A stretch of 64,000 bases of DNA, from assembly GCA_944392595.1 (NCBI GenBank), contig CALXXD010000003.1, forward strand, positions 64,206 through 128,205, in the 5' to 3' direction. This stretch comes from an uncultured Alphaproteobacteria bacterium. GTDB lineage: Bacteria; Pseudomonadota; Alphaproteobacteria; Rs-D84. Below are positions 56,901 to 64,000 of the stretch, piece after piece. Positions within the stretch are counted from its first letter, which is position 1, and each line of letters begins with the position of its first letter. A program made the position numbers.

Positions 56901-59900
56901 GGTCTTTTGAAATAATCGCGTCTTGTTCGCCCTTGGCAAAGGTGTTTGCTTTTTTATGTGCGATTTGACCGATATAAGTCATATCACGCAACAAGCGATG
57001 CATTCCCATCAGTGATATTTTATTGCCACCTTTTTGATTACCTTTTTTGGAAATCCATTTCTTGGAATATATACCCTGTGCTTCAGCATATTGAACCAAG
57101 CGTTTTACAGATTGCAACTCCAAATACTTTTCAAACAGTTGTTTTACTTGTTGGGCCTCCATCTCGTTTACAACCAACTTTTTGTCTTTTATATCGTATC
57201 CTAATGGCGGATTACCGCCCATCCATAGACCTTTGGCTTTGCTAGCGCGTATTTTATCACGCACACGTTCGCTGGCAACTTCCCGCTCAAACTGTGCAAA
57301 TGATAATAACATATTCAGGGTTAGCTTACCCATAGAAGTACTGGTATCGAATGCCTGGGTGATGGACACAAAGTTGCAGTTATATTTATCAAAGTACTTC
57401 ATCATATTGTGAAAGTCCAAGATAGAGCGAGACAATCGATCAACCTTGTACACAACAACAGTGTTTATCAACCCTTTGGATATATCTTCCAACATTTGCT
57501 TTAATGCAGGTCGGTCCATGGTTCCACCAGAAATCGCCGCATCAGTATAAGTGCGAACATATTCCCAGTTATTAAATGCCTGGGACGCAATGTATGCTTT
57601 GCAAGATTCTTCCTGATTTAACAGGGAATTAAACTCTTGTTCCAACCCATGTTCTGTTGACTTACGGACATAAACAGCACATTTAATCACCGGCATTTAC
57701 TTTCCTTTTATCCAGTTCAAAAAAATGTGGGCCTGAGGTCTTCGCACCACAAATATCGGACGCAATTGCGGATAATGAACGATACTGTTTTCCGTTATAT
57801 AAAAACGTGTTGTCATAATTGACCAAGACTTTATGTTCTATATTCCGAAAGTGCCTAATGATAGTTGTACCAGGCGCAATATTATACCTGTGCTTTAATA
57901 CACGATTTACGCATTCGGCGGGGTTGTCTTTATACTTTTTGATTTTCTTGATGAACTTTGGCTCAATCCGCAGGTTTAAGCGTTCGCATTGAATATAGTA
58001 CCACAGAGGTCGCATTTGTCGCTTAAAAGGGTGGGGCGAATACCGTGCCCATAAATGCGCACGCTCATCTTGTGATAACGCTTTCAACTCTTCAAATGTC
58101 TTGGGCAAAATATCTTTAACTTTCCGTTGCATTACTGGTTCCTTTTTGTCGCAGTTGTTGCATAGCAATATCGATTATTGTACGTAGAATACGCAGGTTG
58201 TGATACAGGTCTTTGTTGGTAATTTCCGGCATACGCCCGAACGGATTGCCGGACGTACCACAGCGAAAACGATTATTCTTAGGCGGATTTTTGTATGGCA
58301 TTATTCAACCTCAAACCATTTCATAACAGTGACAAGCAAGTGCGGATAATCGGCACTGGTAGCCTCAGTCAAAAATTCGGACCATTTATCTTCTTTCCCT
58401 GCTAAGACCAGGGCATTTTTACACCGCGAAAGGATAGCGAAAGCGTTACCATCACGATTTGTTAAATAAACCTTTATATCAGGGTATTTAGGCATATTGG
58501 ACTCCTTTGTTTTTACTATGTTTTTAAGTTTGTCCAATTACTGCTTGGAAAGCGCCGAAAGTCAAGTTAAATAGATTTATTTTTATATATTGTATCTTGT
58601 TTTGTTAAAATGCTTGCGAATTTTTGTTTTATAACTTAATCTCATTGCATATGGATAAAATTTTTTAAGAAATATTTAGTGTTATAATTTTTAATTTGTA
58701 TCAATAAGGGACTTATTATGTTATACAGAACAGCGATAAGATATGCACTTAACCGTTTTATTAAAGAAGATTATTATTTAATAGAACATGATGTAAATGA
58801 GCGATCACAAACTCATAAAATAGCTGAGTATTTGCAAGTTTTTTTCTCATGTCACAATATTGATTGTGAGTATAACAAAAATTTGGATAAGTGTAAGGAA
58901 TTAGATTTCTCTGATATAGTCGCTTCTATTAGAGATTTTATAGAAAATCGTAGAGGTGATGGTCTATCGATTGGTTATGATAATTTATATGAAGCCTTCA
59001 CAGATTTGGAACGTGAGATGCGAGAAGCAGTTCCTGTCGGGACAGGTGTTGAAGGGAAGAACGAATATCTCTTGGTTGTAAGGCAAGGGACATCGCAGAA
59101 AAAATATATTAGAAGAGTTTTTCCAGACATAATTGTACACTGTCGCGGAACGAATATTTATAATAAAATAGTTATAGAAGCAAAAAAACACTCGAATAAA
59201 GATGCCGTAGCACGCTTATTTGATAGAATAAAATTAGGTTTATTTACAAAAAAAGACGGAATTTATAAATATGAAATTGGTTTTTTTATAGATATTCCAG
59301 ATAAAGTTTCGTCAAAGGCAAAAATTAGGTTAAAAAAAGATACTTTAGTACAGGGAAGTAACGTATTTCTTGTAACAATGAGTTAAGTTTTATGCTTTTT
59401 TTGAGGGTGCCCCTATATAAGGAAGTGCACATTTGTTTGGGGTAGTGTATCAAATACGTATATTTGGGTTTTTCTTATTTTTATATACTGCGGTCAGTTG
59501 AGTAATTTTGCGATGCAGACGGCGCAATAATATTCTGTCGCGACAGGACAGGTAGTCGCCATTACGGCGTCTAATACGATACTTCATTTTGTTCAAAATG
59601 CGACAAGCGCAATAATAAAGCATACTGCAAGTGGAACCCTTGTTTGGTTTGATATCTTGTAAGATTTGTACTTCATGCGACACCCTTTTTTCAGTTGCCG
59701 CTAGTGTCTTAAAGGCAAGTTAGCGATATGAATATTGTCAAATGCTTAGGTGTTGCTTTTATCGTTTTTCTTGATATGATTCTTTTCAATAAAGAAAGGA
59801 GTTTATTCATGCAAGAAATAAAATGTCCAAAGTGCGGTACAGTTTTTACAGTCGATGAATCAGGTTATTCTGCGATTGTTGCCCAGGTTCGTGATGAGCA

Positions 59901-62900: not shown

Positions 62901-64000
62901 CCAGAAGGTTTCAGAAATATATGCAATAGGATATTTGAGCTTTAAGCAATTTGCTTATACGAATAATTATTGCGAACAAATTTATGAAAGAACTTTCCCT
63001 TGGATGAAGCGTTCATAAAAAGATGGTACACTTCTGTTGGAACATCAAAGTATTGATAAATACCGCCAGAAATGAATTCTATTTCTAATGTATTACTATC
63101 AAAGCCGACACTTTTTATGTTAGAAGATTCTACGGGGGTTCTATACATAACTATCACCTTATTACTATTACTGTGCGATGGTATTATACTTTTTTAGTAT
63201 TTTCAAGCGGATAAAATTCCAAAAATAGTTGGTCAGATTAGGTTGGATTTTCTGTTTTTTTATGTTAAACTGAAATGCGAATCCAGTGGGAATTGGGTTC
63301 GGGGCCGTAGCTGGCTTGTTTAAATCCGGTGCAGAAGCATCGATCTGGTGTTTTTTTGGTGTTTTTGCACCGTTAAATACCCCTGACTGATGGTCGGGGA
63401 GCTGATTGTTATACAATAGAATTAAATTCGAAGGCAATCAGGAGCAACATTGATTTAAACTGCTCAGCTAACTTTCCCGACCGCCTTTCCTTTGGCGGTT
63501 ATTTTTATGCCGTTCCCGCAGGATTTGATAAAAGAGCAAAGGGAAAAATAATGCCGGGAAAATCATTGATAGAAGAATTGCCAGAAATTGTTAAACGGGG
63601 TAAGCGAGAATACGAGAAATTTATTCAAAGGCTGCAATCTGACAACAAAATGTCATTGCAAACAAATGAATATGTGTTGCCATCGCGGGATAAATCCGGA
63701 TTGTTTCGTGGTAAAATTCGTCAATGTTGCCCGCCAGATACCACAAATGATACAACCTGTGATATTGATAATTGGTTTAATCGCCTGGTATATGGCGATA
63801 ATATATTTGTTATGCAGGCATTATTAAACGGTGATGAAAAGACGGGGTTGCCGTCTATGCGGGGGGCAATAGATTTAATTTATATAGACCCACCATTTGA
63901 TTCCAAGGCAGATTACAGAACAAAAATAACATTGCCAACGGGTGATATAGAAGCCCGCCCCGCGGTAATAGACCAATTTGCATATTCAGATACTTGGAAA

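Follow-up and report, generated by a model that had tools for sequence, protein, structure and literature searches.

A DUF2130–OLD–KTSC gene module of a serine-recombinase element as a probable OLD-based defence system

The DNA analysed here is a stretch of 64,000 nucleotides (nt) from contig CALXXD010000003.1 of an uncultured gut alphaproteobacterium (assembly GCA_944392595.1), which we call the window. Near its 3′ end, a mobile element with a large serine recombinase adjoins a tRNA-Ser gene. We interpret positions 59475–63148 as a three-gene cargo module of this element, in which a gene for a DUF2130 protein is followed by a gene for an OLD-family ATPase and nuclease and by a convergent gene for a small KTSC-domain protein. 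The module is most likely an OLD-based system acting against phages or mobile elements and placed beside restriction–modification (RM) genes, a reading to which we give a probability of slightly less than 0.6. It is probably a form of OLD-based defence that is absent from the catalogue and the literature searched, with a function deduced from protein family and genomic context. A preliminary description of the window, made from the sequence alone, had proposed a new OLD-based system and listed five open reading frames (ORFs), all of which were found: 58718–59386 (+), 59809–61134 (+), 61140–62945 (+), 62942–63157 (−) and one starting at ATG 63551 (+) and running off the window end. Its proposal holds for the pairing of the OLD and DUF2130 genes, for the OLD motifs and for the lack of a known counterpart, but its choice of an optional third gene was wrong.

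Conserved linkage of the three genes

OLD relatives were gathered from genomes, metagenomes and viral contigs, and their surroundings were then read. Because a scan of genome contigs with the OLD protein gave only two loci, we relied on metagenome, viral and plasmid collections. A DUF2130 gene touches the OLD gene, with a gap of 2–5 nt, in all nine clusters examined in which the OLD protein is at least 54% identical to that of the window (L010, L001, L011, L104–L107, L103, L118, L003–L005, L006 and L101; hereafter lineage 1). A KTSC gene is present in eight of the nine, namely in every context with the forward gene order, always at the same convergent position and with an overlap of 4–6 nt with the OLD 3′ end. 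The ninth cluster, L101, has the reversed order, in which the OLD gene is followed after 2 nt by the DUF2130 gene, and lacks KTSC. Because the pair is still touching in L101 although its order is reversed, the adjacency has outlived a rearrangement. About 90 loci have an OLD protein of 52% identity or less, and none of them has an adjoining DUF2130 or KTSC gene; they are surrounded by island genes such as FRG, TIR/SEFIR and a Schlafen-type helicase. In neighbour-joining trees, the DUF2130-linked OLD proteins form one clade, which is sister to stand-alone OLD proteins. The conserved unit is DUF2130 → OLD ← KTSC. The preliminary description had treated the convergent KTSC gene as a neighbour of the pair; the gene is real, but it is no bystander, as it travels with the pair.

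The flanks of the trio change from locus to locus. Upstream genes encode Type III Mod and Res in L003 and L105/L106 and Type I hsdMSR in L006 and L104/L107, and an identical OLD protein stands behind different RM systems in L104 and L105. Other flanking genes are NUDIX and Schlafen-type helicase genes in L011, RM genes on the other strand in L103, a tyrosine integrase gene in L003, and DUF2924 and serine recombinase genes in the window, L001 and L118.

Three further features of these loci were observed. Directly 3′ of the trio in L104 (9280–11833 of that locus) lie a PADLOC candidate PDC-S11 protein (DUF4268, E = 2e-120) and a KAP NTPase, so that the trio is part of a dense defence island there. 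A conserved ORF of 143 amino acids (aa) with no family match is located between hsdS and hsdR of the preceding Type I system in L006 (1341–1772) and L104 (2339–2770). In the five loci L012–L016, whose OLD protein is 52% identical to that of the window, a 253-aa ORF overlaps the OLD stop codon by 3 nt (for example, 7821–8582 in L012). This ORF has no Pfam or PADLOC match, and it may be another, different OLD partner.

A second OLD–DUF2130 lineage

The pairing recurs in a distant OLD lineage. When viral contigs were scanned with the DUF2130 profile, 22 loci were obtained, and in 6 of them a complete OLD gene ends 2 nt before the DUF2130 start. The OLD proteins of this lineage 2 have 626–715 aa with AAA_15 and OLD TOPRIM domains, are matched by the PADLOC model ‘Old’ and are approximately 26% identical to the window OLD. 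They are common in Burkholderia, Ralstonia, Paraburkholderia, Dyella, Lysobacter, Variovorax and other genera. Prophages of B. pseudomallei carry a cassette of a 136-aa ORF, OLD and DUF2130 with a 4-nt overlap, placed like a moron between the terminase and the early genes, on the opposite strand. On the Enterobacter asburiae plasmid pAR0468_1 (L153, 187507–197384), genes for an SNF2 helicase, DUF4391, Mod and Res surround the OLD–DUF2130 pair (191507–194799 of NZ_CP083835.1), which is inserted in their cluster. For a Citrobacter freundii plasmid, the analysis covered the OLD gene alone, whose product is a 76.5%-identical lineage-2 OLD. The INPHARED phage records yielded no DUF2130. The preliminary description had named as grounds against its proposal that the two families never co-occur elsewhere; this does not apply, because the OLD–DUF2130 adjacency is conserved well beyond the element in the window.

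A cluster of WYL, SNF2-type helicase, DUF4391 and Type III Mod and Res genes hosts OLD–DUF2130 pairs of both lineages (L153 and L105/L106). In L153 the pair separates DUF4391 from Mod, and in L105/L106 it comes after Res.

Mosaic evolution of the module

According to identity matrices, the DUF2130 proteins of L003, L104 and L006 are 99–100% identical, and their OLD proteins are 53–83% identical. Between the window and L001, identity is 98% for DUF2130, 99% for KTSC and 65% for OLD. A sliding comparison along these two OLD proteins gave 98% for residues 1–20, 20–60% for residues of about 40–420 and 95–100% from residue 426 onward. The OLD protein of L006 is a chimera, in which the N-terminal part of the L003 protein is joined to the C-terminal part of the L104 protein together with its KTSC gene, with a breakpoint near residue 350–370. 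Block analysis of 28 pairs by Spearman rho resolved three independently assorting blocks: DUF2130 with OLD residues 1–40 (rho 0.74), OLD residues 41–360, and OLD residues 430–601 with KTSC (rho 0.72). Between blocks, rho is approximately 0. OLD residues ~41–360 (61260–62220 of the window) are thus a hypervariable recombining cassette, and in the predicted structure this core coincides with the ATPase insertion, which is beta-rich and helical and forms the low-confidence part of the model as well. The mosaic pattern of the sequences is suggestive of recombinational diversification of a recognition surface. The co-inheritance of the end blocks could be explained by linkage alone.

The OLD protein

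The OLD gene (61140–62945, + strand) encodes an ABC ATPase and TOPRIM nuclease of 601 aa, in which Pfam AAA_15 covers residues 1–398 (E = 1e-36) and OLD-like_TOPRIM covers residues 458–527 (E = 2.8e-9). We aligned 35 sequences with identities down to 41% and designated residues conserved in at least 90% of them as nearly invariant. The ATPase residues G30/N32/N33/K36, Q326-G327-G329, F360-E361-E362-P363-E364 and T392-H393-S394-P395 are invariant, and G35 and S38 are nearly so. In the TOPRIM domain, E467-G468-D469 and H524-D525-x-D527 are invariant, and T470 and E471 are nearly invariant. The full set of OLD motifs quoted in the preliminary description is accordingly borne out, each being invariant or nearly so.

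The best PADLOC model is ‘Old’ (E = 6e-57), ahead of AriA and GajA, and the best match by sequence in the Protein Data Bank (PDB) is the OLD protein of Thermus scotoductus (6p74, E = 1.3e-12, identity 16%). An AlphaFold2 (AF2) model was obtained with a predicted local distance difference test (pLDDT) score of 77 and a predicted template modelling (pTM) score of 0.70. A Foldseek search with this model places 6p74 first (E = 1e-19), followed by GajA (E = 4e-19) and retron Eco8, which points to an OLD-like fold. Class 1 OLD proteins have about 500–600 aa and no large helical insertion in the TOPRIM domain; the modelled TOPRIM domain of this 601-aa protein may have only short helices between strands 462–466 and 520–525, as judged from the model by itself. 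With ATPase motifs of ABC type, namely Walker A, signature-like, Walker B/D-loop and H-loop motifs, with acidic TOPRIM residues and with an OLD-like fold, the protein is a member of the OLD family.

The DUF2130 protein

The DUF2130 gene (59809–61134, + strand) encodes 441 aa with a match to Pfam DUF2130 (PF09903) at residues 168–427 (E = 2.4e-91). The protein consists of an N-terminal CxxC knuckle, a helical coiled-coil region of ~180 residues and a C-terminal PD-(D/E)xK-type domain. In an alignment of 23 sequences, D238, E257 and K259 as well as C6 and C9 are invariant, and both the D238/E257-x-K259 motif and the CxxC are kept across all partner types. Because the AF2 model, with a pLDDT of 62.6, was not good enough to search for similar folds, we used motif conservation and secondary-structure order instead. 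The low-confidence model predicts helices at residues 17–94 and 98–195, followed by an alpha-beta-beta-beta-alpha-beta order, and PF09903 has been listed as a PD-(D/E)XK family with unknown function (PMC3424549). By motif, predicted secondary-structure order and this listing, the protein appears to belong to the PD-(D/E)xK superfamily, although its fold is not confirmed because the pLDDT of the C-terminal domain is below 55.

Several other assignments of this protein were considered. The preliminary description had called its N-terminus a Zn ribbon. Only the conserved C6-x-x-C9 is present, and Zn_ribbon_4 (E = 0.0076) and MJ0042 match below threshold and with the first halves of their models; the label was rejected because one CxxC knuckle is found where two are needed. 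As for RmuC (PF02646), Pfam gave no RmuC match, and a comparison of the DUF2130 profile with E. coli RmuC by hhalign gave a probability of 0.1% (E = 0.5). RmuC kinship was dropped after this negative result, and ‘RmuC-like’ can denote an architectural analogy only. No membrane or transmembrane family matched in Pfam, in a search in which transmembrane helices were not predicted directly.

The DUF2130 stop codon (TAA, 61132–61134) is separated from the OLD start (ATG, 61140) by 5 nt, and an AAGGAA sequence lies within the last codons of the DUF2130 gene, ahead of the OLD start. This junction, with a ribosome-binding site (RBS) inside the 3′ end of the upstream gene, agrees with the preliminary description. 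Judging from this arrangement, the two genes are very probably co-transcribed and translationally coupled.

The KTSC protein

The KTSC-domain protein (62942–63148, − strand) has 68 aa and matches Pfam KTSC (PF13619) with E = 1.4e-22 and 79.6 bits against a cut-off of 25. Its ORF reaches GTG 63157, and the start is most likely ATG 63148, which is accompanied by an AAGGTG RBS, as in all homologues. The gene is convergent with OLD, and their 3′ ends overlap by 4 nt in the window. Matches in the PDB are 7x8c (E = 8e-19) and the C-terminal arm of HerA in 8wiv (residues 628–695, E = 2.8e-13). In SIR2-HerA, the KTSC arm of HerA touches the neighbouring ATPase subunit (PMC11472057). No significant match for KTSC was found in PADLOC-DB 2.0. 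A link of KTSC, which is named for the C-terminus of lysyl-tRNA synthetase, with the tRNA-Lys-cleaving PARIS and PrrC and with the class II aminoacyl-tRNA synthetase beside a stand-alone DUF2130 gene was considered; it was dropped, as nothing testable supported it.

Comparison with known systems

OLD nucleases are among the most widespread chassis of defence, and their classes are set by the partner, which is none, a helicase, a retron or a split AriB. In the OLD literature, class 1 is a stand-alone gene with variable neighbourhoods, and the control of these partner-less enzymes is an open question. The window OLD resembles class 1 (P2 Old, the T. scotoductus OLD 6p74, V. cholerae OLD and E. 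coli YbjD) in having all catalytic motifs, in its best sequence and fold match (6p74), in its PADLOC assignment to ‘Old’ and in its location on mobile elements or prophages. In contrast to class 1, its lineage is not stand-alone, as DUF2130 adjoins it in all nine close clusters and KTSC in eight.

Gabija (class 2) consists of GajA and the UvrD-like helicase GajB. It shares with the window pair an OLD nuclease with an adjoining DNA-acting partner in a defence island, and the predicted fold is also similar, as the Foldseek E-value for GajA indicates. However, the partner in the window is a coiled-coil protein of PD-(D/E)xK type and not a helicase, and the GajA models score far below ‘Old’. No UvrD/PcrA-type domain was found in any trio locus; downstream of the OLD gene come KTSC (−) and then Type III mod and res.

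PARIS (class 4, AriA with the TOPRIM/DUF4435 protein AriB) and retron Eco8 (class 3) resemble the module in using OLD-type ATPase and TOPRIM chemistry as a triggered effector. In PARIS the two functions are split, whereas the ATPase and TOPRIM domains form one polypeptide in the window, of which the AriA model covers only residues 1–398. No DUF4435 match to Pfam was found among the window proteins. Neither the ORFs nor their Pfam matches include a reverse transcriptase, Rfam reports no retron RNA, and the NCBIfam model of the Eco8 effector scores 39.8 bits against the OLD protein, with a cut-off of 250. Membership in Gabija, retrons and PARIS was rejected on these defining features. The absence of a GajB-like helicase, reverse transcriptase and DUF4435 had already been stated in the preliminary description, and the helicase-family gene beyond the window end is a Type III Res, as judged via L010. 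PARIS answers to anti-restriction proteins, and by analogy such a role would fit the place of the module beside RM genes.

Two further systems resemble single components. RmuC-domain defence proteins (ShdA of Shield and the DISARM accessory protein) share with DUF2130 a helical N-terminus and a PD-(D/E)xK domain, a likeness in architecture only, with no detectable sequence kinship. The SIR2-HerA system of Paenibacillus is similar through the C-terminal arm of HerA matched by the KTSC protein. In contrast, KTSC in the window is a protein of its own (68 aa) with its gene on the opposite strand, and its putative partner is an ABC/TOPRIM protein instead of a HerA hexamer. PADLOC-DB 2.0 has neither a DUF2130–OLD system nor a significant DUF2130 match, no defence paper in the searchable literature mentions DUF2130 or COG4487, and recent OLD reviews and phylogenies name no DUF2130 partner. 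These searches are in line with the preliminary description, to whose author no such system was known.

DUF2130 in other contexts and alternative explanations

Several observations weigh against reading the trio as one defence system. Lineage 1 is taxonomically narrow (gut Alphaproteobacteria-like metagenome-assembled genomes) and has a single origin, so that shared ancestry could account for part of its conservation. Neither the reversed-order L101 nor lineage 2 has KTSC. The lineage-2 link is facultative: Cupriavidus metallidurans CH34 and Paraburkholderia caffeinilytica p1 have the OLD gene without DUF2130, and on the Aeromonas veronii plasmid pHX3 (L152, 5884–6115) a decayed DUF2130 of residues 1–49 and 368–400 only stands right after an intact OLD gene, so that the partner has been lost in one lineage-2 branch. 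The AF2 model of DUF2130 is poor, as mentioned above. The DUF2130 family is very large (more than 8000 matches, many of them more than 60% identical), and its genes are mostly stand-alone and often core chromosomal genes. OLD-linked copies have no distinguishing domain and fall into at least three clades, mixed with stand-alone copies, and DUF2130 also abuts many other defence genes, as a free-standing island gene would.

The trio could accordingly comprise independent single-gene systems lying side by side, an ordinary class 1 OLD and a separate DUF2130 nuclease of defence or repair, with spacing due to compact islands and hitch-hiking. Such an explanation would accommodate class 1 OLD proteins that work alone (P2 Old, V. 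cholerae OLD and YbjD), lineage-2 OLD genes without DUF2130, DUF2130 genes that are alone in core and plasmid contexts or adjoin unrelated defence genes, and a lineage-1 linkage that arose once. We nevertheless regard it as unlikely, because the lineage-1 adjacency is complete (9 of 9) although the flanks differ on both sides and the order is reversed once, because the pairing recurs with an OLD of only 26% identity at a 2-nt gap or 4-nt overlap, and because recombination has repeatedly swapped the OLD core while the arrangement was kept.

DUF2130 is also found directly after Type III Res genes (L123, L003 and L105) and Type I HsdR genes (L141, L104 and L006), with gaps of 13–25 nt where the called starts are reliable. 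In L006 the gap to the called DUF2130 start is 193 nt, although homology in tblastn sets in near 4806. This arrangement leads to a second alternative, in which DUF2130 serves defence ATPases, of restriction type and others, as a general accessory nuclease encoded at the 3′ ends of their operons, OLD and KTSC form a separate toxin/regulator-like pair, and the trio consists of two units. Besides Res and HsdR genes, DUF2130 comes after SMODS (L135) and SIR2 genes (L149) and, on lactococcal plasmids, before ABC ATPase genes, and KTSC co-segregates with the OLD C-terminus and not with DUF2130. On the other hand, the window, L001, L011, L103 and L118 have no R gene before DUF2130 and yet have OLD after it, the prophage cassettes contain only the 136-aa ORF, OLD and DUF2130 and no RM genes, and DUF2130 co-segregates with the first 40 OLD codons. 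On balance, this two-unit arrangement seems improbable, and we prefer to consider the three genes as one defence module.

In L090–L094, a DUF2130 gene 90% identical to the window copy stands alone in a conserved chromosomal setting, ahead of genes for a class II aminoacyl-tRNA synthetase, RNase J and AlaRS, and more than 1000 sample blocks contain a 67%-identical DUF2130 that stands alone after a UDG-like gene. Nucleotide homology of 85% between the window and the 90%-identical chromosomal copy spans exactly the gene and 57 nt upstream, and these exact bounds suggest a gene-sized exchange between the core gene and the island copy. The region 5′ of the core gene in L090–L094 is a variable spot, with RM genes in some samples (L091 and L092). 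Housekeeping contexts of this kind, once beside a UDG-like gene, would be expected if the module had a non-immune role in DNA repair, recombination or element maintenance (addiction, exclusion or processing of its own DNA) on integrative elements and prophages. A role outside defence is known for one archaeal OLD class (Cran1), and the module is always on mobile elements. The neighbours, however, are overwhelmingly defence genes (RM, PD-lambda-3-like, PDC-S11, KAP NTPase, TIR and Schlafen helicase), the position on the opposite strand in prophages is moron-like, and the allelic hypervariability of OLD fits an arms race. A non-immune role is thus the least probable of the explanations, and very much less so than a defence function of the module.

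Some further DUF2130 neighbourhoods are candidate partnerships. On a Ralstonia solanacearum megaplasmid (L149, 3052–6410), DUF2130 begins 2 nt past a 648-aa SIR2_2 protein, and in L135 (3564–6218) it begins 13 nt past an SMODS/AGS-C cyclase. On the lactococcal plasmids pNP40 of L. lactis (L146, NC_010901.1, 11074–14944) and pC42 of L. cremoris (L151), DUF2130 is followed by a large ABC-type ATPase, either TrlF-family (846 aa) or AAA_13 (744 aa). On the other strand, DUF2130 is preceded by a conserved hypothetical gene of 377 aa. pNP40 is a classic phage-resistance plasmid, and the 20 active systems named in the text of a lactococcal plasmidome screen do not include the pair.

Possible mechanism and significance

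If the trio is a defence module, the OLD ATPase would act as sensor and switch. Its central region (~41–360), which is swapped between alleles, would be the part that meets phage triggers or inhibitors, and the activated TOPRIM nuclease would nick or cut DNA. The DUF2130 nuclease may be a second, invariant DNA-processing or effector subunit, acting with OLD as GajB does with GajA. KTSC may bind the C-terminal part of OLD as a regulator or inhibitor, an idea prompted by the single recombination block of KTSC with the OLD C-terminus and by the subunit contact of the KTSC arm in HerA. From its habitual place next to or within RM clusters, the module may be a back-up to restriction, by analogy with PARIS; this is only a lead, because RM systems are the commonest island genes.

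A wider proposal can be put forward tentatively. DUF2130 may be the marker of a sixth genomic OLD class, defined by OLD with a coiled-coil PD-(D/E)xK partner and by KTSC in one branch. More broadly, it would be a promiscuous, housekeeping-derived nuclease subunit that has repeatedly been recruited by defence sensors and ATPases, namely the two OLD lineages, the lactococcal TrlF/AAA_13 ABC ATPases, SIR2, SMODS cyclases and Type I/III restriction subunits, while the OLD core would serve as a phage-recognition cassette and the module would back up restriction. Taken as a whole, this proposal is possible and rather doubtful. If the main interpretation is true, a conserved nuclease partner and a small putative regulator would make a new OLD class, and a first function would be at hand for DUF2130/COG4487, a family without a known role despite its thousands of members. 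Specificity could be studied in a natural experiment, as some modules are near-identical except in the OLD ATPase core. Tractable hosts also carry versions of the pair, in prophages of B. thailandensis and B. pseudomallei and on the Enterobacter plasmid.

Genomic setting and neighbouring cargo

The tRNA-Ser(TGA) gene (55667–55756, + strand), identified by ARAGORN and by Rfam tRNA (57 bits), is element context and not part of the module. The low-GC integrated element starts directly past it, and the GC content drops from 0.49 to 0.35 at ~56 kb. ARAGORN, Pfam and this GC drop support the earlier assignment to a tRNA-Ser/serine-recombinase element. The element context further includes the large serine recombinase (56104–57696, − strand; Pfam Resolvase, E = 1.3e-39, and Recombinase, E = 3.6e-11) and a DUF2924 protein (57683–58168, − strand; E = 3.5e-19), which is the usual companion of this recombinase and whose gene also stands ahead of the module in L001 and L118.

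The segment at 58602–59474 is a variable slot between DUF2924 and the module. In the window it contains the gene 58718–59386 (+ strand) for a 222-aa nuclease of PD-(D/E)xK type, L010 has a diverged 167-aa homologue and L001 an unrelated 189-aa ORF, and the slot is empty in L118. The preliminary description had regarded this gene as a standalone PD-(D/E)xK nuclease and as an optional third member of the system. The PD...EAK motif is indeed present, but the protein has no Pfam match; it resembles PD-lambda-3 protein A (PADLOC PD-Lambda-3_A, E = 7.5e-19, matched as two partial stretches). The small ORFs flanking the gene have no PADLOC match. Apart from the L010 homologue, tblastn did not find the gene in related loci, where it is absent or replaced. 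It is separate variable cargo outside the conserved module.

The module itself begins with a conserved upstream region (59475–59808, + strand), where the promoter and leader presumably lie. In blastn, the nucleotide homology of the window to L010 and L001 begins here (block boundaries 59475/59476). A promoter and terminator scan of the module gave nothing above chance, and the promoter role of the region is therefore presumed; the Rfam scan had no match above threshold within the module.

Downstream of the module, the methyltransferase gene at 63551–64000 (+ strand) is cut by the window end. Its 149 residues are 98% identical to positions 8411–8857 of L010, where the full-length Mod has 631 aa (N6_N4_Mtase, E = 1.3e-44) and is followed by a 981-aa Res (ResIII, E = 2.3e-14). 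Judged via the near-identical L010 sequence, it is the Mod of a Type III RM system, a neighbouring defence system and context to the module. The N6-methyltransferase with a structured leader of the preliminary description is refined to a Type III Mod, and its leader may correspond to 63392–63500. An Rfam match of this segment to sRNA-Xcc1 stays below threshold (30 bits, where the gathering score is 53; E = 0.048), and a terminator-like hairpin is located at 63479–63500, just 5′ of the mod start.

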